DNA of 64,000 nt from Candidatus Omnitrophota bacterium (GTDB taxonomy: Bacteria > Omnitrophota > Gorgyraeia > Zapsychrales > Fredricksoniimonadaceae). The DNA is taken from positions 5,092 through 69,091 of the forward strand of contig CAIUQE010000020.1 of the NCBI GenBank assembly GCA_903901225.1, in the 5' to 3' direction. This document shows positions 1 to 55,382 of this stretch, one piece after another; within the stretch, counting starts at the first letter, position 1, and each line of letters opens with the position of its first letter. Both the position numbers and the translations under genes were made by a program. The notes under the pieces are model-generated. The model did no database searches. It was not told the DNA's origin and saw only the letters and a list, made by a program, of their open reading frames with translations.

Positions 1-6
1 ATTTTT

Positions 7-930: not shown

Positions 931-945
931 TTACGTAAAAATACA

Positions 946-3148: not shown

Positions 3149-3152
3149 AACT

Positions 3153-4256: not shown

Positions 4257-5272
4257 GGCATCCTTCCCATGATATCCTGGTCGATACGTTCAATGGCCTC
4301 GCAAAGCCCCAGATAAGCGGAAAAACCCCTGACACGCTTGCCCGGGATTGCGCGCACGGCCAGCCCCGCGTTAAAATTACTCACCTGCCGGTATGTCACG
4401 GCCTTGTTGCCGCAAGCCTTGATAAAACCTTCCAGCGCGCTGAAATAAGCGCGTCCCGATGGCAAGATCAACGGCGCGCTGCCGGAAAGGTCCATCACGT
4501 AAAAATGGCGCCGCACTTTTTCCGGAAAAGATAACAATGTCCAGCTGGGCAGGACCCTGCCCTGCGGGAGGATGACCATATCCCAGGTGCCACGTGCCGG
4601 CGCGCTGTACTCCCGCCCGATCAAACCTTGCCGGCGCTCACGCAATTCCCAGGCACTGGCCTTGCGGTATTCGCGCAGGAACAACGCCGCGGACCGGCGG
4701 TCCCAGTCCTCAAGGAACGCCGGATGCACTTCGATATTCCGGGCACCCAGGCCATCCAGATGCCTGACGTTGGCGAACAAGTCTTGCGCGCCATGCGGAT
4801 AGACGGTCATTGTCGTCGACATAGCGACCCTGGCTTTTTGCAGGACACTGATCGCCCGGCACACACGCTGATAATACCCCGCCCGCGCGCCAGGACGATT
4901 CACCCGCGCCGTGCGCTCATCCCCGTCGGCACCCACTTCAACGTTAACACGGTGTTTCCTGAAGAACGCGGCCTTTGAAGCGTCAAGCAATGTCGCGTTC
5001 GACTGGACAGAAACATACCGGCGCGGGAACGCCGCGCGGACCGCTTTGATCATCTGCCTTGTCCTGTCCCACTCCAGCAAAGGTTCTCCGCCCGAAAGGA
5101 TGAATTCACCCTGCCTTGCCAAACCCGCGCAACGCATCGCGTTGCTGAACACCGCATCAGAGATCACCGCGCGCTGGGTCTTGTGCCTGAAAAAACAGTA
5201 CCCGCAACGGAGATTACATCGGTCCGTCACAAAAAACCAGATATGATTAAGCGGAAATTTTTTTATGGCCAT
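4226..5272 (-). CDS. radical SAM protein
   Basis: CNLRCGYC CxxxCxxC motif and SGGEPLL; paralogous to the next gene. Confidence 0.75.
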   Translation of the reverse strand: MAIKKFPLNHIWFFVTDRCNLRCGYCFFRHKTQRAVISDAVFSNAMRCAGLARQGEFILSGGEPLLEWDRTRQMIKAVRAAFPRRYVSVQSNATLLDASKAAFFRKHRVNVEVGADGDERTARVNRPGARAGYYQRVCRAISVLQKARVAMSTTMTVYPHGAQDLFANVRHLDGLGARNIEVHPAFLEDWDRRSAALFLREYRKASAWELRERRQGLIGREYSAPARGTWDMVILPQGRVLPSWTLLSFPEKVRRHFYVMDLSGSAPLILPSGRAYFSALEGFIKACGNKAVTYRQVSNFNAGLAVRAIPGKRVRGFSAYLGLCEAIERIDQDIMGRMPCRRSVMNQS

Positions 5273-6254
5273 AAGAAAGATGCACCCGTGTCATGAACCG
5301 CATCAGCGGGACGATCTGACGGGTATTGAGATAGTTGCGCCCCATCATCGCGTTCACCATTTCAAAGCCGAACGAAACATGATCGCGATAGGTCCGCCAG
5401 GACGGCCTTTTCCATAAAAGGGCATATCGCCGCCGGTAATACGCGACCATCTGGGGCCGTAACGTCCCGGTCGCCGGGTCCCACAAGCTGAATTTCTTGC
5501 GCGCCTTCCCGGGCAGGCACAGAAAGGCATCACCTAACAGCACATCCCCCGGCGGATGCAGGCTGATATCCATAAGGCCCGCGGGCATGAACTCGCGATC
5601 TTCGCGGGTAAAAAGCATCCGGCGCAATGCCGGTGTCGCAACAATATCCACGTATGCCGCCCTGAAAGCCGCCCGGCGCGCCGCGTCCCAGGGCATGAAC
5701 GCGGCGGGCGTGATATCAACGCACGACAATCCGATGCCTTTCAAAAACCGCAAATTCTCCGCCATACGGGCCACTTCATCAGGATGGACCGTCATGGTGC
5801 AACCGCACGATATCCCCGCGTCGAGCGCCGCGCGGATATTGCGCACAAGGCGGGCGAACATCCCGCGGTCCATCGGCCGTCGCCAGCGGGCTGTTGTTCC
5901 AAGATCCCCGTCTATCCCGAACTCCAGGCCGACGCCCCGGGCGCTCAGCCAGGCAATCTTTGTCCTGTCCAGCATCAGGCCGTTGGTTTGCATGCGCACA
6001 TCGGCGCCGGGGAATCCGGACCGCAGCGCCATCACCAGCTTCTTTACCTTATCCCAGCACATCAATGGCTCTCCACCGCTGATCACGAACGACCGGGGAG
6101 ATCCCCATTCCCGTTTCACCAGCACAAGGAAATTTGCCAGGACCTTCCAGGAAAGGTCATGTTGCCTCTTGTCCCGGAAATAACAATATCCGCACGCCAG
6201 CGGGCAACGTTCGGTCAGGTAGATCACGGCCGAGCGCATACGGATCACCGGCAT
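5247..6254 (-). CDS. radical SAM protein (paralog of 4226-5272)
   Basis: CPLACGYC motif and ISGGEPLM; N-terminal 100 aa align with the previous ORF. Confidence 0.75.
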   Translation of the reverse strand: MPVIRMRSAVIYLTERCPLACGYCYFRDKRQHDLSWKVLANFLVLVKREWGSPRSFVISGGEPLMCWDKVKKLVMALRSGFPGADVRMQTNGLMLDRTKIAWLSARGVGLEFGIDGDLGTTARWRRPMDRGMFARLVRNIRAALDAGISCGCTMTVHPDEVARMAENLRFLKGIGLSCVDITPAAFMPWDAARRAAFRAAYVDIVATPALRRMLFTREDREFMPAGLMDISLHPPGDVLLGDAFLCLPGKARKKFSLWDPATGTLRPQMVAYYRRRYALLWKRPSWRTYRDHVSFGFEMVNAMMGRNYLNTRQIVPLMRFMTRVHLSYGHKKISA

Positions 6255-7066
6255 CTTTCTCTCCCTGACTTTTCAACACGCAACAGATCCGAGAACAAGG
6301 CCAAACGCACGTGGCCCTGATCCCGCAGCAAGGCAAGGAAACGAAAGAATGTTTTGATCGCCGTCATGTCATCCGCGCCCTTGATGGCGCGATGATGGTA
6401 CACAAGGCCGATCACGCCGCGCCCGGCCGCGGCACGGCGCCATTGCGCGATCATGTCACGACTGTCAAACGCCAGCGGGGTCCCGTCAGGGGCATATTTA
6501 TTAAGCGCGACACGGGCGGGAAGGTCAAGAAAAGACCTTCCGGAAAGAGCGGCCTTTTTTCCGGCGGAAAAGATCCTGAATCCCAGGTCTTCGACCGCGT
6601 CAAGTGTCGCCCGGTCATAACCATGGTACGGCGGAATAAATGCCGGCGTGAACATGGCGCCAAACGACCTGTGCATGATCTTCAAGCCAGCACTCATATC
6701 TTTATGTTGACGATCATTAGATCTTCCCGGCCCGAACTCATATTTGGCAACGCCCGCGGCCGCATGGTTCGCATGCTGATACCCGTGCTGGACAATATCC
6801 ACAAGGGCCGGATCGCTCTTTTTGGCGTTCTTCAAAACAACAGCCATGCGTGGTTCGAGGCGCAGCGGAATAACACCATAGATGACAGGCAACCGCAGTT
6901 CTTTCAGAAAACCTGACAATTCAAGGAATACCTCATCATCCGACCAGATATCGTCATCCCGCAGGAAGACGCAGGGCAAAAACATTGCAACTCTGCGCCT
7001 ATCCACCTCACACGCATCAACGATCTTTACCTTGGCATTTCGCCGCTTCGTTGCTAAATTAATCAT
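6245..7066 (-). CDS. NodB/CE4-like polysaccharide deacetylase family protein
   Basis: NodB-like motifs FLRDDDI (TFDD-like), QHGYQHANH (H-x-x-x-H) and IPPYHGY (RPPY-like). Confidence 0.45.
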   Translation of the reverse strand: MINLATKRRNAKVKIVDACEVDRRRVAMFLPCVFLRDDDIWSDDEVFLELSGFLKELRLPVIYGVIPLRLEPRMAVVLKNAKKSDPALVDIVQHGYQHANHAAAGVAKYEFGPGRSNDRQHKDMSAGLKIMHRSFGAMFTPAFIPPYHGYDRATLDAVEDLGFRIFSAGKKAALSGRSFLDLPARVALNKYAPDGTPLAFDSRDMIAQWRRAAAGRGVIGLVYHHRAIKGADDMTAIKTFFRFLALLRDQGHVRLALFSDLLRVEKSGRERCR

Positions 7067-7138
7067 ACGATACGTTCATTTTCCTTCTTTATACGGCCCA
7101 TTGCGGCCTGCTTTGAAAAAGTTCCATGTGATTCTAAC

Positions 7139-8320
7139 ATGCCGCGCAAGGAATATGCCAGTCATTGGTGCCCGGCATCCTTTATATCGGGATCTGTCAT
7201 GAAAACAAGACCAAATGACCCCAATGATCGGGACGAAAGACCGGCAGCCACCCGCCCCGGCGAATTATTGATCTCACTCGGTAATCGCTGCCAGTACCGC
7301 TGCCAATTCTGCGCATATTTAAAAGGCAGGAACCCAAAAGTCCTTTCCGCTTCCGCGTGGATATCCCTGCTGAAAGATGCCCGTAACCTGGGCTTCAAGA
7401 AACTCGAGATCGGCGGCCAGGGAGAGCCCGCTTTATTCAAAGGATTTGTGCGCATCGTGCATGAAGCGCGCGCCCTGGGATTCCGGATAAAGCTCTTAAG
7501 CAATATCCAGCACAAAAAAAATATCCTTGCCATATTACCCGCATTGAGCGAACTGACGGTCAACATGAACGCCCTTGATGAAAAAGGATTCCGCTGCCTG
7601 CACCAGCCGCAAAACCCCGCCTCGTTCAACACCGCCATCGACAACCTGGCTGATGGCGCGCGCCTGATCACTGAAGGAAGATCATCGGCCTTTCTCAATA
7701 TCAGCTATGTCGTTTCAAAAACAACGGCAAGGTCCGTCCTGCTTTTTCCAAAAAAACTTTGGAAGATGCTGCAGCAGCGAACGAACATTCAACACCCTGT
7801 GTATGTTCGCTTCCATCACATCCTGATGGTCCCCAGTAATTATCACCTTTGTCCGGACAGCCGTGACCTGCGGCGCATGATCGTGGCGCTTGATAAGGCC
7901 CAGGATAATGCGTTCCTGATGGCCCATTCCAATATCCGGGACTTCTCGACAGAAACAAAAAAGCTCCTGACTTTTTATAAACTCTGGGGACCATTCACGG
8001 CGGATTCGATCCCCGGCTCAAAAAAACACGCCGCAGCGGGAAAAATATCCCGTCACATCTGGTGCGATGCCGCTGAAAAGATCCTTTTCATTGATTGCGA
8101 CGGCGATGCTTTTGGCTGTTATAATCCGACCAGGACCTTGACCGGCATACCAGCCAGACAGGATGATCTATACCTGGGGAACATTCAGGAAGTCCCGGTA
8201 AGAACAATGCTCCGGCGGGCAAGTAAGATCGGCTGTTTTCATCCTGATATTACCAGGCGATCCTGGAAAGTCTGCGCGGCCTGCGGCCTGAGAACAACAT
8301 GGATGCCACCACACGCCTGA
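7139..8320 (+). CDS. radical SAM protein with SPASM-like C-terminus
   Basis: CQYRCQFC CxxxCxxC motif; C-terminal CDAAE..CDGDAFGC..C..CAAC cysteine cluster. Start uncertain: 7139 or the Met at 7199. Confidence 0.7.
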   Translation: MPRKEYASHWCPASFISGSVMKTRPNDPNDRDERPAATRPGELLISLGNRCQYRCQFCAYLKGRNPKVLSASAWISLLKDARNLGFKKLEIGGQGEPALFKGFVRIVHEARALGFRIKLLSNIQHKKNILAILPALSELTVNMNALDEKGFRCLHQPQNPASFNTAIDNLADGARLITEGRSSAFLNISYVVSKTTARSVLLFPKKLWKMLQQRTNIQHPVYVRFHHILMVPSNYHLCPDSRDLRRMIVALDKAQDNAFLMAHSNIRDFSTETKKLLTFYKLWGPFTADSIPGSKKHAAAGKISRHIWCDAAEKILFIDCDGDAFGCYNPTRTLTGIPARQDDLYLGNIQEVPVRTMLRRASKIGCFHPDITRRSWKVCAACGLRTTWMPPHA

Positions 8321-9150
8321 ATATCCTCCATTACGTCAAGTCAAGAACATCTCCGGGAACAAGCCGCCTGTTGAAGAAATTCTGCTGCCTCAAGCCAAGG
8401 ATCACCGGAAGCCTTGAGATATCCAGCGAATCCACCCAGGGAGCAGGCCGGGATTATGCCCGCCTGGCACTGACCTGCCTGCGCCGTGAACAGGTCATCA
8501 GCCTTTTCGCCGAAGCCGGCCATGCGCGCGCCGCCGTTGAACCCTACATGTTTGATAACCATAAGGACCATTGTTTCGGGATGGGCATCGCGGACTATGA
8601 CGCCACGCGCGACGAACGGCGGATGAAACTGTATAACTACTATCATCTTTCTCTACAGAAAGTCCCCTGGCGCGCCCATATCAGGAAAGTTTGCCATAAG
8701 GCGGGGATCTCCTTGCCGCAAATTGAAAAGGATCTCCTGTATTTCAAAAAAGCGCGGATGTCGGCGGTCGATCTTTATGACAGCGGCAAAGTCGAACTGA
8801 AGGTTTATTTCGGCCCTTTTCTCAGCAGGGATATCACGGGAAAATTCAAAGGACTTTTTAAAAAAAGGACCGTGCTCCGATACAAGGAATTATTATCAAC
8901 CGGCCACCTTCCGGACCTGGTCCTGTTCTGCGCGCGGTATGGCACTCATGGAAGGTCTATAAGGACCGATTTCTGGAACGGCCGGGAACGGCCTCTTGCG
9001 ATCCTCGAAGCATTGGATACGCAAGGCGAAGGACTAAGGTTGTACCATGACCTCGCGGCCATCACCAGCGCATTGCGGCTGACCTTCACATGCGTCGACA
9101 TGGACCAACGCCCAAGGACACAATTTTATTTTGAAATTATAGACTTTTGA
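8299..9150 (+). CDS. hypothetical protein (283 aa); alternating aromatic beta-strand pattern
   Basis: No recognisable motif. Repeated KVYF/LRLYH/FTCVDMD/QFYFEI strand-like segments; sits inside the rSAM cluster and overlaps the upstream gene end by 22 nt. Confidence 0.4.
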   Translation: MDATTRLNILHYVKSRTSPGTSRLLKKFCCLKPRITGSLEISSESTQGAGRDYARLALTCLRREQVISLFAEAGHARAAVEPYMFDNHKDHCFGMGIADYDATRDERRMKLYNYYHLSLQKVPWRAHIRKVCHKAGISLPQIEKDLLYFKKARMSAVDLYDSGKVELKVYFGPFLSRDITGKFKGLFKKRTVLRYKELLSTGHLPDLVLFCARYGTHGRSIRTDFWNGRERPLAILEALDTQGEGLRLYHDLAAITSALRLTFTCVDMDQRPRTQFYFEIIDF

Positions 9151-9196
9151 AAGCGACCTTATGTTCTATTGTCCTGTGTTATAATCAGGCTCTTCT

Positions 9197-10069
9197 ATGG
9201 ACCTTCCCCGCGTGATCTCATCCATCCCTTTTATCCTGATCTGCATAACAGGCGCGCTGACCAGTTATTCGGATATCCGTGAAAAAAAGATCAGGAACAT
9301 CCATTTGTTCATGACAGCTTTTCCCGCCCTGGCGCTCTATGCGGTTTCTTTCTTCACGGCGGGATCCCTATGGCAGGCGCCATTAAGCAGTGCTGTCACC
9401 GCCACAGTGGCGGGCGTATTTTTCTTCAGCATCAACCTTTGGCGCCCCGGGGACGCGAAACTCTTCGTCACATATGCTTTTCTCATGCCGCTCACGGGTT
9501 ATGAACAGGTATTCGCTTTACCGTGCGTCCCTTTGTTCATCAACACATTCCTCATCGGCCTGATCTGCTTTACCCCTTTGTTCCTCTGGTCGGTGCTGAA
9601 GCATCCCAAAACTTTGATCCAGGCAATATTTATGATCAAAGACCCGAAAAACACGCTTATCGCGTTCATGGTCATGATATCCGTATCATGGGCGATCCCT
9701 CATTTATTGGCCATGACTGCGTGGCATATCCAACCCTTCACCCGGTGGATCATCATTTCCACGCTATATTTTCTGATCTTCCGGATGGCATCATACCTGG
9801 AGGAATATCCGCAGATCGTGATCCCCTGCGTTATCATCGGCCTGGGCCTTGGCCTGCGCTGGTCACCGGATTTCTACACGCTGGAACACCTCACCCGCAC
9901 CGTCATGACCCTGTGTGCCTATTCCCTGGGCTTCCAACTGATCCACAACCTGATCCGGCAAACCAGGGACAACAAGGACCGGGTAGCTTTCGCGCCTTTC
10001 CTTTTCGCCGGATGCCTGGCCAGTTACACGCCATTCCTCGGCTGGATGCTGAAGATCTTACACCGATGA
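9197..10069 (+). CDS. peptidase A24 (prepilin peptidase/TadV/CpaA-like) family membrane aspartic peptidase homolog
   Basis: Polytopic membrane protein; SDIREKKIRN matches the first catalytic-Asp motif (D-L-R-x-R-R-I-P-N) and RPGDAKLF matches the second (G-G-D-V-K-L). Its stop overlaps the next start in an ATGA. Confidence 0.55.
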   Translation: MDLPRVISSIPFILICITGALTSYSDIREKKIRNIHLFMTAFPALALYAVSFFTAGSLWQAPLSSAVTATVAGVFFFSINLWRPGDAKLFVTYAFLMPLTGYEQVFALPCVPLFINTFLIGLICFTPLFLWSVLKHPKTLIQAIFMIKDPKNTLIAFMVMISVSWAIPHLLAMTAWHIQPFTRWIIISTLYFLIFRMASYLEEYPQIVIPCVIIGLGLGLRWSPDFYTLEHLTRTVMTLCAYSLGFQLIHNLIRQTRDNKDRVAFAPFLFAGCLASYTPFLGWMLKILHR

Positions 10070-11043
10070 AAAACCCCTCCTCCATCGTCATCGAGATCAC
10101 CGGACAGTGCAACCTGCGCTGCCGCCACTGCACCGGCGCCAGCGCGCGCCGCGCCCGCGTCACATTCGCAACTGTCAAAATGATCATTGATGATGCCAGG
10201 CGCAACAAGGTCACGGCCATCAGGTTCACCGGCGGCGAGCCGCTCCTTCATCCCGAACTCCCGCAGATGCTGGCTTACGCCAAAGAACAAAAAATGTATG
10301 TCCTGCTCAATACCAACGCGACGCTGGCAACACCCGCCTGGCTCAACATCTTTGCGCTCCACGTCGATAATATCCTTGTCTCCCTGCAGGGCTGCGACAG
10401 CGCCTCCGACCGCGACCTGACGCGAACGTCCCTGCCGTTCTCAAAAAAGATCAAAAACATCCTTCTGCTGCGTGACACTGTTCCTGTCGTGCGGCTCGGT
10501 ACGGTCATCACGCGGCAGTTCCTTGACGACGTCCCGCGTTACGCGGCGCTGATCGCGAAGATCCGCCCGTATGCCTGGGAACTCTTCCGCCCGATGAGTA
10601 TCCAGGCGCGCCGCGCGATCCGCCTCAATGCCAGTGATTATCAGTCTCTGGCGACAAAACTTCTGGAGCTGTCACAAGAGGGGCTTAACGTGAAACTCGC
10701 CAACGCCCTGCCTTTTTGCGTCCTGCCGGACCTGAAAGCCGCCTCCAGCATCATGCTCGGCGCTCTATCCGACGACGGGCACACGCGGCTTGTCTGGGAC
10801 GCGCGCGGTTTCTACAAGCCAAGTTACTTTATCGACGAAGATCTTGGAAAGAACATCAAGGTTGCCTGGGCTCATACCTTCCTCAGGAAACTCAGGAAGC
10901 CATCGTTCCTGCCCGCGCGTTGCCGGGCCTGCTCCGTCCTGAAGCAATGTCAGGGCGGCAGCCGTGCTTTGGCCATGGCTGCCAACGGGTCTTATTTTAC
11001 CGCGGATCCTTTGTTCCAGCCCCGCGCTCAGCCCACCGCCTGA
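10066..11043 (+). CDS. radical SAM protein with SPASM-like C-terminus
   Basis: Start at the Met of MKNPSSIVIEITGQCNLRCRHC (internal to ORF 9523-11043, which is an artefactual extension); FTGGEPLL; C-terminal CRACSVLKQC cluster; ATGA overlap with the A24 homolog. Confidence 0.7.
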   Translation: MKNPSSIVIEITGQCNLRCRHCTGASARRARVTFATVKMIIDDARRNKVTAIRFTGGEPLLHPELPQMLAYAKEQKMYVLLNTNATLATPAWLNIFALHVDNILVSLQGCDSASDRDLTRTSLPFSKKIKNILLLRDTVPVVRLGTVITRQFLDDVPRYAALIAKIRPYAWELFRPMSIQARRAIRLNASDYQSLATKLLELSQEGLNVKLANALPFCVLPDLKAASSIMLGALSDDGHTRLVWDARGFYKPSYFIDEDLGKNIKVAWAHTFLRKLRKPSFLPARCRACSVLKQCQGGSRALAMAANGSYFTADPLFQPRAQPTA

Positions 11044-12406
11044 ACACCTCCGCCGCCCAGCCGCCTTCCTCCAGCTTTCCGAAAATATATTCGAACTGAA
11101 AATCAAGGATCTTGAATGCCGATGAACATCGGGTCTTTGACACGACATTATGCTGCAAGGCGTAATTGACCACCGGGCAATACCCCGTCCAGGGGATGAA
11201 CGGCGAGGCATACTGCGCGATATCCGCGCAGGACGCCTGCAAAAGATAAAGCAGCTTGTCGCTGGACATCATGTCCTGATACCGGTCTTGCAGGATATTG
11301 CCAAGCTTGAACATATCGCCCCCGACCATCCGCGCCTCGTCGCACGGGAAGCACCCCCCGTCGGGCATATAGGCCATCTGCGCGCGCCCGGCCCCGCAGG
11401 GATTCATCAGGTCGACGAACATCGGGTCCTTTTTGGCCAGCACCTTCGTAAGGATGACACGGGCCATCCGTTCATGCATCTCAACACCCTTGCGGTTCAA
11501 TTCCAGGATATGCTCCATCGCCACCCGGTAAAATCGCTGGAATGCCTCAGGGCTGTAACCAAGGGCCTCCCAGCCGCACTCCGCGCCACCCATATTATTC
11601 ACCGGACGCAGGGAGATCTGCGTCTGCCCCTGACGGACGTATTCGTCCACGATCTGCCGGGGATGCCGGAGTGAAGCCGCGGTTATCGTCGGCAGGAATG
11701 ATACCTGCCGGCCGAATTTTTTGCTGAATTCCCGCGCCTTGCCGGTCACGACCCGGTAAGTCCCCCGCCCGTTGGGAAGGACACGGTGGCGGTCATGGAT
11801 ATCCGCGGGGCCATCAAGCGAGGTGCAAACTTTAACGTCATTGTCAGCCAGGACGCGCATTTTAGCCTCATCCAGCAGCGTCAGGTTGCTCACAAGGGAG
11901 ACCGTGACGTTCTTGCCGGGGCGGCCCAGACGGCGCGCGCCCTCGATCAGGAATTTTGCCACCGGCCAGTTCACCAGCGGCTCACCGCCCTGCAATTCCA
12001 GCGTGACATGCGGATTGCGGACATCCTCGAGATAACGCAGGACCTGGCGCGCCACCTCCAATGACATATCCCGGCCTTCCGGGACCCTGGCCTGGCAATA
12101 GGAACATTGAAGATTACATCGGGTCGTGACAACAGCGATATGCAGGGATGTGTCGGCAAAGAGGTTGGTATTGACGGAGCGGAAATCGCGGATCAATTGC
12201 CGGACATTATCCGCGTCGGCCACGAGGCCTCTGGATCGGAGCCTCGCGAACAAAGGCGTGGCGCGGGCCAGGCCCAGCGCGTTCAACTGCCGGAATTCAT
12301 CCGGTGCCAGAAAGTCCCAGCCGCACAACCTGTTACTGACAAGATAACGGCCATTGATCCGGCGTGAATTGAAGGGAGGGATGAAAAAATTGTCGGTCTT
12401 TTTCAT
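10997..12406 (-). CDS. radical SAM/SPASM-domain protein (anSME/peptide-maturase-like architecture)
   Basis: True start at MKKTDNFFIP (12406). The upstream 123 codons of the track ORF are Arg/Ser-rich and look like frame noise. CNLQCSYC, LQGGEPLV, and a C-terminal NPCGAG..C..C SPASM-like Cys cluster. Confidence 0.7.
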   Translation of the reverse strand: MKKTDNFFIPPFNSRRINGRYLVSNRLCGWDFLAPDEFRQLNALGLARATPLFARLRSRGLVADADNVRQLIRDFRSVNTNLFADTSLHIAVVTTRCNLQCSYCQARVPEGRDMSLEVARQVLRYLEDVRNPHVTLELQGGEPLVNWPVAKFLIEGARRLGRPGKNVTVSLVSNLTLLDEAKMRVLADNDVKVCTSLDGPADIHDRHRVLPNGRGTYRVVTGKAREFSKKFGRQVSFLPTITAASLRHPRQIVDEYVRQGQTQISLRPVNNMGGAECGWEALGYSPEAFQRFYRVAMEHILELNRKGVEMHERMARVILTKVLAKKDPMFVDLMNPCGAGRAQMAYMPDGGCFPCDEARMVGGDMFKLGNILQDRYQDMMSSDKLLYLLQASCADIAQYASPFIPWTGYCPVVNYALQHNVVSKTRCSSAFKILDFQFEYIFGKLEEGGWAAEVFRRWAERGAGTKDPR

Positions 12407-12443
12407 CTCAATGCCGTCGGCAAGGCTTCCGGCTGATCCTTTG

Positions 12444-13715
12444 TTACTTGCCCAGAAGCGCGAACATCTTCTTTTTGTACGCCTCGACACCGGGCTGGTC
12501 GAAAGGATTGACGCCGAGGATATACCCCGATATCCCGACACCTTTCTCAAAAAAATAATACAGCTGGCCGATATGGAACGCGTCCGCCTGCGCCAGGCTG
12601 ATCGCCATGTTCGGGACCCCGCCCTCGTAATGCGCCTCGGCCGTGGCTTTATACGCCTGGGCATTGACCCATTCCAGCTCTTTGCCCGCCACACAATTGA
12701 ACTGGTCGGTATTTTCCGCCTGGGAAGGGACCACGACCTTGTCCGCGACCTTGTCGATGGTGATGAACGTCTCAAAGATATTGCGCATCCCGTCCTGCAT
12801 CATCTGGCCCATGGAATGCAGGTCGGTGGAAAGGATCGTCGACGCCGGGAATATCCCCCGCCCGCCCTTGCCTTCGCTTTCGCCGTAAAGCTGCTTCCAC
12901 CACTCGGCCACATACTGCACGTTCGGATAGAACGACGCCATCATCTCAATGACCTTCCCCTTGCGGTAAAGGACATTGCGGATGGCGGCATACCGGTAAC
13001 AGCTGTTGCGCGCGCTGTCGGGGTCGGCGTATTCTTTCTCGCCCGCGCGAAACCCGTCGACAAAAGCGCGGATATCAACACCAGCCAGCGCCAGCGGCAC
13101 CAGGCCGACAGGGGTCAGGATCGAGAACCTGCCGCCCACATCGTCGGGAATGACATAGGAACGGTATCCGGCCTTGTCCGCGATCTGGCGCAAGGCGCCC
13201 TTCCTGCCGTCCGTCACGCAAATGACGCGCTTTTTCAGTTCGGCGGCACTGTATTTCTTGCGCATGGCCTCGTCGATGAGGCGGAACGCGAGTGCCGGCT
13301 CCGTGGTCGTGCCGGACTTGGAGATCACGACGACCGTGACATCCTGGCGGGCGATCACATCCAGCACCCTGACGATATCCGCCGAGGACATGTTATGCCC
13401 GGCGTAATGGACCGGGACCGCGGAGGCACCGCCCAGGAATTCCAGCGTGGAGCGGATGCCCAGATAAGACCCGCCAATGCCGATGGAAATAATGGCTTGT
13501 GAATGCCCGGCCACTTCCTTCGCCAATCCGGAAAGCTCCTTGACCAAAAGGTCCGGGGTTTTTGAAGGCAGGTCGACCCAGCCAAGAAAATCATTGCCCG
13601 CGCCCGTCTTCTGGTGCAGGTCCGCGTGCGCCTTGGCCACGGCGGGCGCCAGCGCGTTCAATTCACTCTCGCTCACAAGACCCTTCAAATATCCCGTATC
13701 AAGCCTGATCCCCAT
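12444..13715 (-). CDS. pgi: glucose-6-phosphate isomerase
   Basis: Conserved ISIGIGGSYLG and surrounding PGI sequence; length typical of the short bacterial type. Confidence 0.9.
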   Translation of the reverse strand: MGIRLDTGYLKGLVSESELNALAPAVAKAHADLHQKTGAGNDFLGWVDLPSKTPDLLVKELSGLAKEVAGHSQAIISIGIGGSYLGIRSTLEFLGGASAVPVHYAGHNMSSADIVRVLDVIARQDVTVVVISKSGTTTEPALAFRLIDEAMRKKYSAAELKKRVICVTDGRKGALRQIADKAGYRSYVIPDDVGGRFSILTPVGLVPLALAGVDIRAFVDGFRAGEKEYADPDSARNSCYRYAAIRNVLYRKGKVIEMMASFYPNVQYVAEWWKQLYGESEGKGGRGIFPASTILSTDLHSMGQMMQDGMRNIFETFITIDKVADKVVVPSQAENTDQFNCVAGKELEWVNAQAYKATAEAHYEGGVPNMAISLAQADAFHIGQLYYFFEKGVGISGYILGVNPFDQPGVEAYKKKMFALLGK

Positions 13716-35110: not shown

Positions 35111-35461
35111 TTCACCTGTATCCTTATTACCTGTTTGTTGACTGATCTTTCATCACCGGGAAATCAACGTAAATCTAGCACATATTAAAACAAAAAACAA
35201 CACGGAAGGCGCGCGCAAAACTTCCAACTGTTATTCTATACAAAATACTTTCAAATCATCAAAGAATCTTTGAAAAAAACTTTCGCGCGCCGGGATCCGG
35301 GAACGATGTTCTCCGTCGGAGAATCTACCTGCCGAAACAGGCCAGGCCCAGCAGCGCGCGTTGAATGAAGAATTTAACATCAATTGATATTTTTTGCAAA
35401 TAATATTTATTGATGAGCGATGATTTTCTTGCTGATAAAAAGCGTCCTTCTCCCCGCTTCT

Positions 35462-38398
35462 TTACCTGGCTGCCTCAAAGAACGATCGCGGATCATTTAA
35501 AGTTGTTACGCCAAGAACAACCGGCGTGAAACCATCGATCCGTTCTTCGAGCATCGCGGCATCAATGCCAATGTTAAAATTTATCTTCCCGCCAGTTTCC
35601 AGAAGGCGAAGCTTATCAGAATTAAGATCAATACCACCGTTCAAATTATTGGCATCAACGACTGTTTCACTATGCTGCGGCGTTGCGATCTTATTCTTTG
35701 CTCCTCTTCCCCAGACATGTTTTCCAGTTTTAAATTTTATTTCATCAAGATAACTCTCATCACTTGGTCCAGAAAATCTTATCCCGAACGCATTCGACAA
35801 TGCCTGGATCATATTGATTTTCTTTCTTTTCAGATGCGCGCCCGTGCTGCAGCTCTCGGCTATACCTTTGGCATCGGCCTTGACGAATTTGCTTAACATC
35901 CCCGAAGTCAACCGCCGATCCTCCGTTCGCAACGTTTCATCACCATAGTGCCCGAAGTCAATGGACCAGGGATTACCGTGCCCGCCAATGATCACAAACG
36001 ACGCCGGCTCCTTCCCATCCCCCGTTGCGTCAATAAAAGCATCGACCATTTCCTTGACAGAAGCCACTTCATAATACAGGACTGAATAGCCTTCTTTGAT
36101 CAATTGATCGATCGCCGATTCCCTCATAAATGCGGCATTCCGGTCTGATTTGGGATAAATAACAACAGCCCTTCCTTTCGGGGCTTGGGGGGTTGTCGTC
36201 ATTAATTTGTGCTGTAGTTTTCCGGCACTGGCCTGACGGTTATTAAAGCGATTGATCACGCGATTGATGAACAAATGCGATCTGATCTGCGCCGGCCAGG
36301 CTAACGGACGAAGAATATTTAACTCTTGCCAGTGGCCATACTGCAGCAACCTTTGCCATATATTGAAGCCATCTTTCTCCGATCTTTTTGCCAGCTCAAA
36401 CACCAACAATGAAAGTCTTTCTCTAAAATTATCCGTGCCGGATTTAACCCTGTCAGGTGGAGTCGTGCGCGGGAACATGCGCTCAAATTCATATTTAATC
36501 TCATCCATCCCAAAACGTGCATCTCGTATCAATTCTCCCCGATTGTAATACCTTGCGTATACATTCAGATTATTCATAAGATAATTTTTGGCCTCGTCAC
36601 TGCCCGCGTCAACCAAGGCATCCAATATGCGAATCGCCTTCTCCTGACTCAACCTATCTTTAGCAGCATGACTGACAATCCAACCCAAAGACCCAACTTC
36701 CCGAAAAGTTTTATTCCTGAGGGCATTCCTTCCTAATACCTCTATCACAGCATCTCGCGTCTTGCTTTCCAACCGATCCCATATTGAATTTCCATGATAA
36801 CTCAATAGAAAGCCAAGACCATACAACACGTTTTCATCGTTTTCCCTGGCATACTGGAACAACTCACGCGCGATCTCTACAGGAATGTGCCCACGGGAAT
36901 ACATACGTTCTAAATATGAATCAGCTACATCAACTCCCTTTGACACAAGACTGGCCAAAGCCCTAGTGATCAACACCCTGTGCTGACCATGAATGACTAT
37001 GCCCAGATGAAGAATCTCTGAGGCTATGCTCGTGTTGTTCTTACTAATTGCAGGATCTATAATCCCCTGAACATCAGGATCCTGGTACAGACTTAATAGC
37101 GCTGATACGATCTGCGGCGCAAGGCCAGGGCGACCTCTTCCCAAACTTATAAGCGCGTCCACAGTTTCGTAACTGTGGGCTCCTCGCATCAATGCCAGCA
37201 CTTCAGGAGCGTCAATCGAAGGAAATTTAAATCCCGAGGTCCGGCTTCCCGAAACAGGATCAAACTCAACCTCGGCGACTACATTTTTCCCGATATTCTT
37301 TTGCGCCGCATCAACCATCGCCCGGCCAGAAACCCGTTCTTCTTTGACCATCGCCGGGTCATGATGAAACCCGCCGGAGAAATATTTCCGGGGGATGATT
37401 TCCGAGGTTGTTTCATCCTTCTCTTCCTTGATGTAATTAAAAACACCTTTCCGAAACGCCTCCTCATACTGTTGCCAAATCTTGTCCTTGACCTTTTTAT
37501 CCGCCAGGTCAATCCCCGTCACCTTGTTCTTTGCCGCATATACCTGGCCGACCAGGCTCCGCTTCAAGTTGCGCTTGAACCACGTCGACAGGATCATGGC
37601 GTGATAGATCTGCCGCAACGTGCCAAAGTTTTCGCCGTTGTTGACCTCTTTCTCGATCTCAGGCAGAACGATCTCACGCATGACCTGCCGGGGAATGCCC
37701 CTGGCCTCAGCGAAGCCGTCCCGGGCTTTAGAATTATCGGAGTTCTTCCTCATGGACGTGTAATCAGTATCCAGCATGACCTTCAGGTGACTTTTCGCGA
37801 TAAATGCCGTATCGCCGTTCACATAGACAACCGCCTCATCCGGAACGATCCACACCTTGTTAAAAGTATCCAGCGGTATATCCGTCGTGCCGTATTTTTC
37901 AAAAACACGGGCGTAAATTTTCTTCCATACCTCACGGCCCAACGCCTTTTCGGGATACATCATCGATGAGGTCAATTGCTTGAGGATATAATCTTCGGCC
38001 AGAAGATCACGCCCCATTTCCGTAAGGCCAAAGTTGTCCGGGATGATCCTGTCGCCTTCATAAGGAGACAAATTCACCCAAAGCTCATCCTCCGGGACCG
38101 TCAAGGCAGCCAGAAAATACCTGATCAACCTGGTCGATTCCTGTTGCAACGGCACCCCCTGAAGGGCGGAATTTCCGGTATCAATAAGAAAATCAAAGCG
38201 TAATTGATCGGCAGGATAAACTTTCATGCCCTTAAGGACCGCTGGCACGAATGAAACGCTTGGGGTAACCATTGTGCCCGGTTGAGGCAGGATCCTCTCA
38301 CCTGCAACCATCTGGGCATATGACGGCGGGACGCTGGCGGTTATGAAGGCCACCAGCATGAATGACGCGATTACTCTTTTAGTGATTTCTTCCATCAT
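35462..38398 (-). CDS. large secreted protein (978 aa), unknown function; C-terminal region with a His-Gly...Cys arrangement reminiscent of clan-CD cysteine peptidases
   Basis: Signal peptide (FITASVPPSYAQ). Markedly lower GC than the surroundings. C-terminal ASFVIIGGHGNPW ... AESCSTG. No other motif recognised. Confidence 0.45.
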   Translation of the reverse strand: MMEEITKRVIASFMLVAFITASVPPSYAQMVAGERILPQPGTMVTPSVSFVPAVLKGMKVYPADQLRFDFLIDTGNSALQGVPLQQESTRLIRYFLAALTVPEDELWVNLSPYEGDRIIPDNFGLTEMGRDLLAEDYILKQLTSSMMYPEKALGREVWKKIYARVFEKYGTTDIPLDTFNKVWIVPDEAVVYVNGDTAFIAKSHLKVMLDTDYTSMRKNSDNSKARDGFAEARGIPRQVMREIVLPEIEKEVNNGENFGTLRQIYHAMILSTWFKRNLKRSLVGQVYAAKNKVTGIDLADKKVKDKIWQQYEEAFRKGVFNYIKEEKDETTSEIIPRKYFSGGFHHDPAMVKEERVSGRAMVDAAQKNIGKNVVAEVEFDPVSGSRTSGFKFPSIDAPEVLALMRGAHSYETVDALISLGRGRPGLAPQIVSALLSLYQDPDVQGIIDPAISKNNTSIASEILHLGIVIHGQHRVLITRALASLVSKGVDVADSYLERMYSRGHIPVEIARELFQYARENDENVLYGLGFLLSYHGNSIWDRLESKTRDAVIEVLGRNALRNKTFREVGSLGWIVSHAAKDRLSQEKAIRILDALVDAGSDEAKNYLMNNLNVYARYYNRGELIRDARFGMDEIKYEFERMFPRTTPPDRVKSGTDNFRERLSLLVFELAKRSEKDGFNIWQRLLQYGHWQELNILRPLAWPAQIRSHLFINRVINRFNNRQASAGKLQHKLMTTTPQAPKGRAVVIYPKSDRNAAFMRESAIDQLIKEGYSVLYYEVASVKEMVDAFIDATGDGKEPASFVIIGGHGNPWSIDFGHYGDETLRTEDRRLTSGMLSKFVKADAKGIAESCSTGAHLKRKKINMIQALSNAFGIRFSGPSDESYLDEIKFKTGKHVWGRGAKNKIATPQHSETVVDANNLNGGIDLNSDKLRLLETGGKINFNIGIDAAMLEERIDGFTPVVLGVTTLNDPRSFFEAAR

Positions 38399-50740: not shown

Positions 50741-52189
50741 TTAATCTTGCGCGTAGATCAAGGGAAGGGAAATAATGAACGTCGAGCCCTGGCCGGGTTC
50801 ACTGGCGACGTTGATGGTGCCTTGGTGCGCGAGCACGATCGCCTTGACAATGCTCAGGCCCAGGCCAAATCCCGGGCTGGTCCGCGATTTCTCCGCGCGG
50901 TAAAACCTGTCAAAAACACGCCCCAACTCCTCGCGGGCGATACCCGGTCCGGTGTCATTGACGGTGATCTCCACCGACGCGCCACGACGCACGGCCCGCA
51001 CCGCGATCTGCCCGCGGTCCGACGTATACTTCACGGCATTGTCCACGATATTGGAGACCACCCGCCCAAGCTGACTTTCATCCGCCTCGAGCGACACCTC
51101 GTCACTCGCCAGCAGGCGCAGGGCGATAGCCTTGAGTTCCGCCTGGGGACGGGCATCCTCGATCACCCGACGCAGCAGCGGCAAAAGATCGACCCGTTTC
51201 AATTGCAGCTCGTTCTCGGCCCTGTCCATCCGCGCGAGGACCAGGAGGTTCTCCACCAGCGCGTTCATCTTGTCGATCTCCTCAAGATTGACCGACAGGA
51301 CCTCCTCGTATTCCACGGGCGAGCGCCGCTTGTTCAACGCGACCTCCTGCTTGCCCTTGAGGACCGTCAGCGGCGTCCTTAACTCGTGCGACACGTCCTG
51401 GATCAGTTGCTGCTGCAGCGAGAACGCCTTGTCCAGGCGCGAGAGCATGTCATTGAACGTTTCGGCGAGCCGGCGGTTCTCGTCGTTGGCGGAAGGCACC
51501 GCGATGCGCTGTTTCAGGTTTCGGGACGTTATCTGTCGCATCGCCTTCGTCATGTTGTCAACAGGACGCAGGGTGGCCCTGGTCAGGAAGAACCCCATCA
51601 CCATCACCAGGACCATGGCCAGCGGCAGGAATATCAGCAACACTGTTTTAATACGGCCGAGCTTCACGAGCAAAGGCCTCAACGAGGCCGTGACCTGGAT
51701 AAAATATACGGTACCGCCCTTGTCGACACGCAGGACAAATGTCCGCAGGGGCCAGGCCTCTTCGCCAAAAGAAAAGGCGACCGGGCTGTCCCGGAAATTG
51801 CTCCTGCCCAGATCGGGTGAGAGATCCTCCAAAGCCCGGGGAAAAGGCATATTGCTCGAACGCGTCAATTCTTTCCCGTCATGCTGGAATATCTGGATAA
51901 AAACACCCTCGCCGCGGCTCCATTCGGCCGCGTTGTGCAGGGTGGTGACAAAATCCGCGTTGGACGCCGCCGCCGTCAGCCCTTCCCGCCGGTCGCGCGT
52001 CCGGTCCAGGAGCGCCTCCTCGACAACCTGCCCGACGTGCGCGGCCCGGGTCTCGAGCAGGTAATTGAAGTCCTTGTTCAGGACGCGGCTGAAATTGGCA
52101 TAGAGACAAACGCTCAGGATCAAGGCAATGAGCCCCACGGCGAGGACGTACCAGAACGTCATCCGGAAATAGATCGAATTAATCAGCAT
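50741..52189 (-). CDS. two-component sensor histidine kinase (HAMP + HisKA + HATPase)
   Basis: Two TM segments, H-box HELRTPLT, N/G-boxes (DNAVKY, DTGPGI, GLGLSIV). Confidence 0.85.
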   Translation of the reverse strand: MLINSIYFRMTFWYVLAVGLIALILSVCLYANFSRVLNKDFNYLLETRAAHVGQVVEEALLDRTRDRREGLTAAASNADFVTTLHNAAEWSRGEGVFIQIFQHDGKELTRSSNMPFPRALEDLSPDLGRSNFRDSPVAFSFGEEAWPLRTFVLRVDKGGTVYFIQVTASLRPLLVKLGRIKTVLLIFLPLAMVLVMVMGFFLTRATLRPVDNMTKAMRQITSRNLKQRIAVPSANDENRRLAETFNDMLSRLDKAFSLQQQLIQDVSHELRTPLTVLKGKQEVALNKRRSPVEYEEVLSVNLEEIDKMNALVENLLVLARMDRAENELQLKRVDLLPLLRRVIEDARPQAELKAIALRLLASDEVSLEADESQLGRVVSNIVDNAVKYTSDRGQIAVRAVRRGASVEITVNDTGPGIAREELGRVFDRFYRAEKSRTSPGFGLGLSIVKAIVLAHQGTINVASEPGQGSTFIISLPLIYAQD

Positions 52190-52859
52190 TGTTCGCCCTG
52201 ATCATGTAGCCGCGCCCTCTGATCGTCTGGATGAGCGCCTCTTCGCTCTCGGCATCGAGCTTCTTGCGCAAGGCGTTGATATGCACGTCGATGACATTGG
52301 TCGTGGTGTCAAAATTGATGTCCCAGACATGTTCCAAGATCGCGGTCCGCGTCACCACTTCGTTCACGTGCCGCAGGAGGTATTCGAGAAGGAAGAACTC
52401 CTTGGTCGTCAGGGTGATTTCCCTGGCGCCGCGGGTGACTTTATGCGCCAGCACGTCCAGCGTCAGGTCGCCAGCCCGCAGGACCGTTGCGGAAGGGCCG
52501 GAACCCTGCCTCAAGAGAACACGGATCCTGGCCAGCAATTCCTTGAAGGCGAAGGGCTTCGTCAGATAATCGTTGGCGCCGGCGTCGAGGCCGCTGACCT
52601 TGTCATCGACGCTGTGTTTTGCCGTGAGCATGATGATCGGGACATTGTTCTTGTCGCGCCGCAAGTTGCGGCACAGGGTTATCCCGTCCATCTTCGGGAT
52701 CATCAGGTCCAGCACGATCACGCCGTAATTCTCCGTGCCCGCCAGGAAATACCCCTTCTCCCCGTCATAGACCACATCGACGGCATAGCCTTCTTCCCGA
52801 AGGCCCTGCTGGATGAAATCAGCGATATGTTTCTCATCCTCGATGACAAGTATCCTCAT
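52179..52859 (-). CDS. OmpR-family response regulator
   Basis: MRILVIEDE receiver and C-terminal winged-helix (TKEFFLLEYLLRH...). Confidence 0.85.
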   Translation of the reverse strand: MRILVIEDEKHIADFIQQGLREEGYAVDVVYDGEKGYFLAGTENYGVIVLDLMIPKMDGITLCRNLRRDKNNVPIIMLTAKHSVDDKVSGLDAGANDYLTKPFAFKELLARIRVLLRQGSGPSATVLRAGDLTLDVLAHKVTRGAREITLTTKEFFLLEYLLRHVNEVVTRTAILEHVWDINFDTTTNVIDVHINALRKKLDAESEEALIQTIRGRGYMIRANNAD

Positions 52860-52876
52860 CCCATCCGTCCATATCC

Positions 52877-52938
52877 GGGGACACGTAACAAATTCAAAGG
52901 ACGAATTTGGTACATGTCGTACATGTCCCCGCTCTATT
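52877..52938. repeat. ~50-bp palindromic repeat element, copy A (GGGGACACGTAACAAATTC-AAAGGAC-GAATTTGGTACATGTC..CCCC + GCTCTA)
   Basis: Imperfect hairpin with the same AAAGGAC loop and GCTCTA tail as the copies at 53673-53764; intergenic between the RR start and the toxin gene end. Confidence 0.7.
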
Positions 52939-52948
52939 TAAAAAATGC

Positions 52949-53227
52949 TCAATTTTGCTTCAAGAATCGTTTTACATCCTCGTGATTACCCGCAAGCAGG
53001 AACTCCGCCAGGTCCCCCTCCCAACGGAACAGGATCCTGACTTTCAGCCCGTAACGAACTTCCCAAAAATTGTTTTTCAGGCGCTTCAGACCAAGTCCCT
53101 GGTAAATTTCCCTGTCTTTGGATAATACTTCGATAAGCTGGCTGGCCGCTGACTTGACGTCGGCTTTATCATGCAAAGGCAATTGCTTGATCGAACGGTC
53201 AAATGAAGGTTTAAACTCAAATCTCAT
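52949..53227 (-). CDS. type II toxin, RelE/ParE superfamily
   Basis: 92-aa basic protein with the RelE/ParE-like secondary pattern; overlaps the upstream antitoxin by 4 nt; low GC. Confidence 0.6.
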   Translation of the reverse strand: MRFEFKPSFDRSIKQLPLHDKADVKSAASQLIEVLSKDREIYQGLGLKRLKNNFWEVRYGLKVRILFRWEGDLAEFLLAGNHEDVKRFLKQN

Positions 53228-53487
53228 AATCCGGCAAGATGTGCCTTCGCGGCTTCATCATATGAAAAAACCTTGCCCTTGGCTGATGCCAATTTTTCGA
53301 TCTTCTGCCACTCACTGGAAGTGTAGGGTGATCGCGCGGTCACTTCGCACGGCATGAGCATGATGCCGTCTTTACTAACGCCAAAGGCGACCGAAGAACC
53401 CTCTTGCAAATGTAAAAGCTTACGGATCCGGTTAGGGATCGTGACCTGCCCCTTGGTGGTCATTTTTGCCGTTTCAATAATGGTCAT
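53224..53487 (-). CDS. type II antitoxin, AbrB/MazE/SpoVT-type (looped-hinge helix)
   Basis: N-terminal TTKGQVTIPNRIRKLL is the AbrB-like swapped-hairpin DNA-binding motif. Confidence 0.6.
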   Translation of the reverse strand: MTIIETAKMTTKGQVTIPNRIRKLLHLQEGSSVAFGVSKDGIMLMPCEVTARSPYTSSEWQKIEKLASAKGKVFSYDEAAKAHLAGL

Positions 53488-53672
53488 AAAAAGCGCCTTT
53501 CTTTATAATTCCTTACTTCCTTACAATAAGGATACTTCGAGCAGGCTCGAAAGTCAATAGCCCTACCTTATCACCCCGCGGCCGATGTGGGCGTTGCGGA
53601 TGATGGTCGGGCCGCCGTTGTTGTAGAGCGCGGTGACATCGGCGGGAGTCAGGGCGCGGTTGTAAAGGTTCC

Positions 53673-53764
53673 GGGGACACGTACCAAATTCAAAGGACGA
53701 ATTTGGAACATGTCCCCGCGCTACGAAATCCAAAGGACGGATTTGGTACATGTCCCCGCTCTAA
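53673..53764. repeat. palindromic repeat element, copy B (full) plus copy C (right half), tandem
   Basis: GGGGACACGTACCAAATTC-AAAGGAC-GAATTTGGAACATGTCCCC-GCGCTA then CGAAATCC-AAAGGAC-GGATTTGGTACATGTCCCC-GCTCTA; same orientation as copy A. Confidence 0.7.
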
Positions 53765-53765
53765 T

Positions 53766-55368
<1,603 letters not shown>

Positions 55369-55382
<14 letters not shown>

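Follow-up and report, generated by a model that had tools for sequence, protein, structure and literature searches.

Hairpin repeats around a predicted toxin-antitoxin module in a Candidatus Omnitrophota genome

Most repetitive extragenic palindromes (REPs) follow the 3′ end of an upstream open reading frame (ORF) within ∼20 nt, between unidirectional or convergent genes; their stems contain G.T pairs and compensatory variants, they occur as singletons, dimers or clusters with duplicated flanks, and some of their families span distant taxa (PMC3733652). Here we describe a hairpin of this general kind that occurs in three copies around a predicted toxin-antitoxin (TA) gene pair in a stretch of 64,000 nt (hereafter the window) of contig CAIUQE010000020.1, whose source, as judged from homologs of its ABC-F ATPase gene, is Candidatus Omnitrophota. 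The hairpin belongs to a dispersed REP-like family of intergenic palindromes found in Omnitrophota and at least two other phyla. Like REPs, its members are short imperfect palindromes, multi-copy and dispersed, without an adjoining transposase, and they share with REPs the placement after stop codons, the G.T pairs, the compensatory stem variants, and the dimers and clusters with duplicated flanks. A sequence-only reading of the window had proposed a small mobile or recombination-prone cassette, inserted through an element resembling a REP or a MITE (miniature inverted-repeat transposable element); the REP/MITE-like element and the proneness to recombination stand, but mobilisation of the TA pair by the hairpins is not supported.

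The hairpin family

The two full copies and one half copy in the window follow the consensus GGGGACACGTA(A/C)CAAATTC-AAAGGAC-GAATTTGG(T/A)ACATGTCCCC, with the 7-nt centre AAAGGAC identical in all three, and lie in one orientation around the antitoxin and toxin genes, a module of low GC content (0.47, versus 0.57 in the whole window and 0.64 in the stretch 53563–53670). In all these respects the sequence-only reading was accurate. Copy 1 (52877–52930) reads GGGGACACGTAACAAATTC-AAAGGAC-GAATTTGGTACATGTC, followed by the 9-nt repeat GTACATGTC and by CCC; 9 nt are duplicated inside it (GTACATGTC/GTACATGTCCCC), one arm is mutated (GTAAC) and the arms have an A/G mismatch. It is flanked by CATATCC on the left, which matches the subfamily flank consensus C(G/A)TAT(T/C)N, and by GCTCTA at 52931–52936, and has its outer end 16 nt past the toxin stop codon. 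Copy 2 (53673–53717, then GCGCTA at 53718–53723) carries A.A and C.A mismatches, and its left flank ends after 3 nt, at a gene remnant described below. The 5′-truncated copy 3 (53726–53757) reads AAATCC-AAAGGAC-GGATTTGGTACATGTCCCC, with the flank GCTCTA at 53758–53763; two bases (CG) separate it from the flank of copy 2, and its end lies 2 nt away from the stop codon of ABC-F. Its variant is found as a full copy elsewhere (L024/L137), and another locus, L139, carries a window-like dimer in which a full copy precedes a 5′-truncated one. Copy 3 is probably the older, resident copy.

Folded as single strands, the window copies reach −15 to −23 kcal/mol, far better than shuffled sequences on both strands (z = −4 to −5). 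The 19-nt arm has five matches with at most three mismatches in the window, versus 0.00 in window shuffles, and a covariance model built from 70 hairpin copies and run with filters off placed full copies in the 64 kb only at 52869–52938 and 53665–53725. Scanning 52500–54100 against Rfam 15 at E up to 10 gave chance-level matches only, and in the literature searched the arm sequences matched nothing beyond unrelated primers and viral sequences. A role of the hairpin as antitoxin operator was considered and rejected, since the conserved TA operator is a different repeat within the module and hairpins also follow unrelated genes.

Beyond the window, the family was surveyed by scanning one genome per species and then by a two-arm scan of metagenome contigs; a first genome pattern, ATTTGKWACRTGTCCCC, was too degenerate, about two-thirds of its 115 stretches being chance single-arm matches. 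The 76 copies recovered, spread over 66 loci, come from many Omnitrophota and Aminicenantes, from Alphaproteobacteria and from other taxa, which bears out the earlier view of a dispersed REP/MITE-like repeat rather than a local operator; away from the window the element is multi-copy and flanks ordinary housekeeping genes. The survey patterns demanded near-consensus arms, so that arm conservation is partly set by the search, which cross-phylum presence is not. The alphaproteobacterial copies sit on contigs of 130–650 kb and are therefore not a product of mis-binning, and the single archaeal label among the hosts, on a 5-kb contig, is probably a binning error. Viral contigs and PLSDB plasmids held no hairpin copies.

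The arms, GGGGACAYGTWMCAAAT, are nearly invariant, 17 nt of them being near-identical across phyla, and loops and flanks mark lineage subfamilies. The loop of the window copies, TCAAAGGACGA, is shared by one further locus (L044) and by assembly ERZ1645192, where at least 10 copies have it; subfamilies other than that of the window have AATTAN or other flanks. The strand that carries a G.U wobble in the stem is, in the window, the sense strand of every local gene, and in the subfamily of the window it reads (A/T/G)TAG-NNC before the stem (here ATAGAGC, GTAGCGC and TTAGAGC, with L102 and L139 alike). The metagenome-assembled genome (MAG) MBPbin6 has at least seven copies, an RBC032 contig has at least 10 within its first 16 kb, and the density in unbiased Omnitrophota DNA is about one copy per 70–80 kb.

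The hairpins are intergenic and have housekeeping genes such as leuS, lptE and holA as neighbours. Twenty-seven of the 50 stop-adjacent copies lie within 25 nt of the stop codon, distances that rest on simple ORF calls. The flanking genes are arranged as ++ in seven cases, +− in seven, −− in six and −+ in five, and a copy points the same way as the upstream gene in 23 cases, the opposite way in 13 and is symmetric in 14, a weak bias that is not significant. Clustering of the neighbouring proteins around 33 and then 66 loci (463 ORFs) revealed no recurrent protein and no cluster of transposases or of REP-associated tyrosine transposases (RAYTs); neither kind of gene was found within 4 kb of the 76 copies, and at the start of the RBC032 contig, where hairpins are dense, a Pfam search of the ORFs gave no mobility gene. 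Arm pairs 0.8–3.4 kb apart enclose housekeeping genes, and no parent insertion sequence with matching ends appeared in the public collections sampled. One such pair, 3.4 kb apart in L113, was considered as an autonomous element and rejected on account of the housekeeping genes that it encloses.

Pairing holds at 89% of the stem, with changes on both sides in nine of the 19 pairs; the stem covariation score of 0.157 compares with 0.082 in shuffles (0/500 reach it) and with at most 0.087 when partners are slid. The stem pairing is maintained through compensatory changes. Two mispaired positions are conserved as well: in 57 of 70 copies one position reads as a C.A mismatch or, on the opposite strand, as a G.U wobble, and 28 of 70 have an A.A mismatch. 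In 12 of the 70 copies, versus 0.8 expected, the flanks add 5 nt or more to the palindrome, with sequences that differ between copies. No target-site duplication was detected, direct flank repeats being at chance (k = 3: 1 seen, 0.8 expected; k = 5: 0). The copies cluster and are often trailed by a partial repeat of their own last 6–30 nt plus flank, and truncation points vary between loci.

Part of this evidence could suggest that the hairpins are mainly functional RNA elements (3′-untranslated region stabilisers, processing sites or terminators) kept by selection, in which case their placement would be uninformative on the arrival of the TA pair. The copies near stop codons, the position that is C.A on one strand and G.U on the other in 57 of 70 copies, the wobble strand coinciding with the sense strand in the window, and the occurrence of an unrelated palindrome at the same ABC-F stop codon in a related genome would all agree with such a role, as would the orthologous copy between leuS and lptE, of which 40 nt are invariant in three genomes whose flanks differ by 6–12% (88–94% identical). 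REPs themselves are thought to act as 3′-end RNA elements (PMC3733652). However, the orientation bias given above is slight, the hairpins have no U-tract, and a terminator scan left them unflagged. Near-identical arms in unrelated genes and phyla need copying, not convergent selection, and the partial duplications and abutting gene fragments speak for activity at the DNA level. We regard a mainly RNA-level explanation as improbable.

The fragments in question are 5′-truncated pieces of genes that abut hairpins at L033:2834–3034 (minus strand), L074:4341–4610 (minus strand) and L101:5209–5448 (plus strand), in the manner of the remnant beside copy 2. The L033 fragment is the C-terminus of a trypsin-like protease (Trypsin_2). 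The one in L074 and L101 looks, from the family motif, like the C-terminus of an IS91-type transposase, and these two loci share one hairpin-fragment junction despite labels of different phyla. In addition, two ∼99% identical genomes (L138:6018–6130 and L027:6480–6612) differ solely at a hairpin dimer, where L027 has one copy swapped for an unrelated 62-nt hairpin-forming sequence save its last 6 nt (GTCCCC); the difference is a recent replacement event with a breakpoint inside an arm. Other widespread repeat families, for instance GTCATTCCGAGCGAAGCGAGGAATCTC... and GTCATCCTGAGGGCGAAGCCCGAAGGATCTC, adjoin the hairpins at some loci (L051:5880–6000, L145, L162; L125:3500–3560) and are often translated as spurious peptides in MAG annotations.

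The TA module and its site

The antitoxin matches PF04014 (MazE_antitoxin) at E = 4.4e-8 (33.4 bits, curated cut-off 24.7) and the AbrB-family model TIGR01439 at E = 3.4e-10 (39.5 bits, cut-off 28.3), both above their cut-offs, and bears an N-terminal SpoVT/AbrB swapped-hairpin domain. Its stop codon overlaps the toxin start by 4 nt (ATGA). The toxin matches PF24732 (ParE_like) at E = 0.013 with 15.9 bits, below the cut-off of 24.4, and neither an NCBIfam search nor a comparison of the toxin-family profile with PDB sequences gave a real match. An AlphaFold2 model of mediocre confidence (pLDDT 65) has a beta-alpha-alpha-beta4-alpha layout, and the top 20 matches of a fold search with it are nearly all RelE, HigB, YafQ or YoeB (probability 0.7–0.9, with TM scores of only ∼0.3). 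More than 500 homologs, all of ∼92 aa, were found, some of them named RelE/YafQ by JGI. From these predictions, the 92-aa protein is probably a toxin of the RelE/ParE superfamily.

A promoter scan placed a −35 box TTGACT at 53557–53552, a −10 box TATCCT at 53534–53529 and a repeat CCTTATTGTAAGGAAGTAAGGAA ahead of the pair. In six further contexts with a toxin 75–90% identical, the same antitoxin gene precedes the toxin gene in each, and the surrounding genes are unrelated (DEAD-box helicase, methyltransferase, HicAB, tRNA, RelE/MqsA-like pair, radical SAM gene). Across five aligned contexts, DNA homology runs only from the −35 box to the toxin stop codon, the −35 region TTGACTTT being the upstream limit of the conserved module. 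Of the seven contexts, the window among them, five lack the hairpin. In the one other context that has it (L125/L126), a hairpin lies 14 nt past the toxin stop, on one side only, with nothing upstream of the antitoxin gene; it is of the host genome's own subfamily (AATTAT flanks and a different loop), and the spacer is unrelated to that of the window. The limits of TA homology, the absence of hairpins from most contexts and the host-specific subfamily of the L125 hairpin together argue that the hairpins are not the ends of a TA transposon. As read from these alignments, hairpin type tracks the host genome and not the cargo, and the TA pair is a separate, self-contained type II module (promoter, operator, MazE/AbrB antitoxin, RelE/ParE-like toxin) that occupies many Omnitrophota sites without hairpins. 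Several TA homologs (L129–L132, L133–L136, L170) lie in TA islands or integration hot spots, beside HicAB, a tRNA gene, or a RelE/MqsA-like pair plus a DUF3024 gene.

In the alternative that follows the sequence-only reading, a non-autonomous mobile cassette with the TA pair as cargo would have the two hairpin sites as its functional ends. It could take the form of a composite MITE or of a palindrome-associated transposable element (PATE) of IS200/IS605 type, with subterminal hairpins in one orientation, and would be moved by a transposase encoded elsewhere and acting in trans. One orientation of the hairpins on both sides, the low-GC cargo and the foreign gene remnant within the bracket, and the short distance between the sites relative to copy density would agree with such a cassette. 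The 18-nt stretch GTACATGTCCCCGCTCTA, identical at both outer right ends, has been counted in its favour, but this identity is the element consensus, and the same GCTCTAATTC flank is found in L139. Likewise, a hairpin also follows the toxin stop in L125/L126, but it is one-sided, of a different subfamily and set off by an unrelated spacer of 14–16 nt. The bracketed unit has no second copy, all 17 toxin-bearing contigs read sharing one context, and the window copies are decayed by duplication, mismatches and truncation. The family lacks target-site duplications, neither the surroundings of the 76 copies nor the window yielded a transposase, and elsewhere hairpins flank ordinary housekeeping genes. 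A hairpin-ended cassette therefore seems to us unlikely, and the part of the earlier reading that made the hairpins the vehicle of the TA pair is not sustained.

The site itself is a variable region, since the closest relatives carry different genes downstream of ABC-F. All 17 contigs read with the toxin gene or with the neighbouring response regulator gene have the exact arrangement of this locus, and they represent one population sampled in many metagenomes. In relatives with 94% and 85% identical ABC-F proteins, hairpin, TA pair and response regulator are all missing from the site: downstream of ABC-F lies an unrelated ATPase gene in the 94% relative, and a 106-aa gene followed by the cold-shock-domain (CSD) gene in the 85% relatives, one of which has a TPR gene there, preceded by a different palindrome. 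No clean empty site was seen among the relatives compared. The absence of the TA pair after ABC-F in the closest relatives agrees with the earlier view of an accessory TA pair in a recombination-prone region; the element is present beyond this locus, and the pair is not shared by all relatives. The palindrome of that 85% relative (L123:6614–6664), perfect over 22 bp and reading TTAATTCGGTGACAGTCACTTA-N7-TAAGTGACTGTCACCGAATTAA, overlaps the ABC-F stop codon at a position equivalent to that of copy 3; it shares an AATT-NN-GG.GACA layout with the window hairpin and may represent a distant subfamily.

A possible history of the locus

The minus strand of 53563–53670, between the TA promoter and copy 2, translates to NLYNRALTPADVTALYNNGGPTIIRNAHIGRGVIR and a stop, the final 35 codons and stop codon of a small Laminin_G_3 (LamG) gene. 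An exhaustive phmmer search with this remnant returned 309 matches, and proteins of 184–298 aa share its last 34 residues at 74–79% identity; the full-length relatives match Laminin_G_3 at E = 1e-19 to 1e-23, and in them DDVRIY precedes the shared C-terminal motif. By these protein matches the GC-rich stretch is a real gene remnant, as had been surmised from its composition. Its 5′ end is cut 3 nt from copy 2, and its stop codon is followed directly by the TA promoter. A 1785-bp contig of the same BUCK21-1 project (L169) carries a full-length 248-aa LamG gene whose C-terminus is 79% identical to the remnant; this contig stops 10 nt past the LamG stop codon, as if the assembly had broken at a repeat. 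Public gene calls turn 53563–53751 (minus strand) into a 62-aa ‘protein’, present in 28 contigs of the protein collection, which is an artefact of reading through copies 3 and 2 into the remnant. A word-indexed protein search with this ORF returned itself as the sole match, the LamG relatives being found later by exhaustive phmmer.

We lean, if only slightly, towards a history in which illegitimate recombination associated with hairpins joined a fragment, bearing the TA module, the LamG remnant and a hairpin copy, to the site of a resident hairpin; among the courses of events considered it is the simplest to accommodate the decayed copies and the remnant. A resident hairpin, now copy 3, would have sat after the ABC-F gene. 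A fragment of ∼0.8 kb would then have arrived from another locus, where a LamG gene was followed by the TA module, bearing copy 2 at its broken end, the last 105 nt of the LamG gene and the downstream module. It might have joined at or next to the resident hairpin through template switching, through illegitimate recombination at a stalled or extruded hairpin, or through local repeat duplication, and the joining would have left same-oriented copies on both sides. Placement after a stop codon is usual for the family, which accounts for two same-oriented copies after two same-strand genes. The hairpins would thus serve as hot spots of breakage and joining, perhaps also as 3′-end RNA hairpins, and not as transposon ends; the obvious candidate for the enzyme that spreads them would be a trans-acting transposase of RAYT type that binds single-strand hairpins.

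The layout could also suggest that the hairpins are sites of site-specific recombination, comparable to integron attC or to lox/dif, and that a TA circle entered by crossover with a resident site. The genes are followed by an imperfect palindrome within ∼15 nt and in direct orientation, as in a cassette, and the 7-nt centre is identical in the three copies. TA modules are common cargo of chromosomal integrons. However, as judged by eye, RYYYAAC/GTTRRRY core sites are missing from the copies, as are extrahelical bases and an unpaired central spacer, and the stem is continuous; on structure and context we rejected the identification of the hairpins with attC. No integrase or tyrosine recombinase is encoded in the 64 kb, and copies elsewhere are solitary and follow large housekeeping genes rather than forming cassette arrays. 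A reciprocal crossover predicts two complete hybrid sites, but what is seen is a full copy, 8 nt and a truncated copy; truncation points that differ between loci likewise argue against a fixed crossover point. We consider site-specific entry of the module very unlikely.

Several points weigh against the fragment-joining history that we favour. The two hairpin sites are only 0.8 kb apart at a density of about one copy per 70–80 kb; their independence is estimated at ∼3%, so that they are probably historically linked. The repeat occurs at one locus only within the 64 kb. Two of the seven TA contexts have a hairpin 14–16 nt past the toxin stop, more than a per-gene prior of 1–4% predicts; this gives p of ∼0.02, estimated from a rough guess of copy number, and a real link between TA landing sites and hairpins, by insertion at hairpins or by hairpin-mediated mobilisation, is likely. 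The order of events is read from three decayed copies without an empty-site allele, and the copy census is biased by the near-consensus arms that it required and by the crude ORF calls behind its distances.

A bolder proposal is that the family is an undescribed, horizontally spreading single-strand DNA element. In Omnitrophota, Aminicenantes and Alphaproteobacteria a single conserved enzyme would recognise its 17-nt arms, the fixed C.A/G.U position included, and its copies would capture and join foreign DNA in the form of 3′ fragments of genes and of TA modules. We hold this to be rather doubtful; if true, the hairpins would form a recombination platform working like an integron or a REPIN system and belonging to neither.

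Table 1. Coordinates of the locus within the window
Feature	Position	Strand	Basis or remark
OmpR-type response regulator gene	52179–52859	−	Pfam Response_reg and Trans_reg_C; start codon 17 nt from hairpin copy 1
Hairpin copy 1 with conserved flanks	52870–52936	.	Covariance model, 38.8 bits, E = 3e-9; left flank fits subfamily consensus
92-aa toxin, probably RelE/ParE superfamily	52949–53227	−	Sub-threshold ParE_like match, homologs, fold model
87-aa predicted MazE/AbrB antitoxin (SpoVT-AbrB fold)	53224–53487	−	PF04014, TIGR01439
Predicted TA promoter and operator	53488–53557	−	Promoter scan; block conserved in five aligned TA contexts
LamG pseudogene remnant	53563–53670	−	phmmer; Laminin_G_3 matches of full-length relatives
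Hairpin copy 2 with right flank GCGCTA	53673–53723	.	Covariance model, 64.7 bits, E = 5e-17
Hairpin copy 3, without left arm, with flank GCTCTA	53726–53763	.	Sequence match; variant full-length in L024/L137
ABC-F ATPase gene	53766–55382	−	Context gene; Pfam, homologs

Two other regions of the window may be mentioned. A 978-aa ORF at 35462–38398 (minus strand) has a third-position GC content of 0.53, versus ∼0.7 in its neighbours, and no Pfam match, and just downstream of it lies an AT-rich 23-nt palindrome (35378–35415); together they may represent another foreign insert. At 1–12800, seven radical-SAM genes are densely clustered with a DegT-type aminotransferase, a GT28 glycosyltransferase fragment and a DUF2334 gene, a group that is probably a sugar- or lipid-modification cluster.

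Significance and comparison with known systems

With the hairpin-ended transposon set aside, the TA pair is a type II module of an ordinary, promiscuous sort, sited in a variable region downstream of a conserved gene, and the hairpins are a long-stem REP-like repeat whose arms are near-identical across three or more phyla, most of whose bacteria are uncultivated. If one enzyme does recognise the family, it would give a handle on how repeats of REP type spread between lineages and seed rearrangements such as truncations and captured fragments. On the practical side, such repeats break assemblies and yield spurious ORFs, the 62-aa ‘gene’ across copies 2 and 3 being an example.

As with REPs, the hairpins sit just downstream of ORF 3′ ends (the 27 of 50 copies noted above), but they are larger, with a core of 45 nt and a stem of 19 bp (up to ∼25 with flanks, which add as many as ∼6 pairs) as against 20–40 nt and 6–13 bp in REPs (PMC3733652). 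The family is also AT-richer and lacks a general GTAG/CGTC tag, only the subfamily of the window having (A/T/G)TAG three nt from the stem, and it differs further in the near-identity of its 17-nt arms across phyla and in its low density, with one locus in 64 kb of its source. With regard to REPIN/RAYT systems, neither the window nor the 4-kb surroundings of the 76 copies yielded a RAYT gene, the single-copy Y1 transposase gene that is flanked by the repeats in such systems.

MITEs such as Correia/NEMIS, RUP, ERIC and the Rickettsia palindromic elements resemble the hairpins in having terminal inverted repeats round a short non-coding centre, and in being non-autonomous, scattered, sometimes within genes and able to form long RNA hairpins; they are 100–300 nt long, however, whereas the hairpins measure 45–60 nt and come without target-site duplication and, in the public collections sampled, without a parent insertion sequence. 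Integron attC sites share the close succession of gene and imperfect palindrome in direct orientation, with TA modules as typical cargo, but the hairpins lack core sites, extrahelical bases, arrays and an integrase, and have two fixed mismatches and no bulges, as judged by eye. In contrast to IS200/IS605 elements and PATEs, the bracketed unit is unique (one context in 17 of 17 contigs), junctions vary between loci, and Pfam scans of the window ORFs revealed neither a Y1 gene nor any transposase, integrase or tyrosine recombinase.

Type II TA systems with a RelE/ParE toxin and an AbrB/MazE antitoxin, of the PrlF-YhaV kind or with MazE-type antitoxins beside RelE-like toxins, are matched by the predicted pair of the window in having the antitoxin gene first with a 4-nt overlap, an AbrB-fold antitoxin, a small toxin of predicted beta-alpha-alpha-beta4 layout, an operator repeat in the promoter and a patchy distribution; the toxin differs in that it exceeds the threshold of no curated family, and its RNase or gyrase-poison activity is putative. 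The arms of the hairpin family are near-identical across phyla, fixed mismatches included, and no enzyme is visible that would account for it. Taken together, the locus joins two known kinds of sequence, a REP-like repeat and a type II TA module, and in this it is fairly ordinary accessory DNA.

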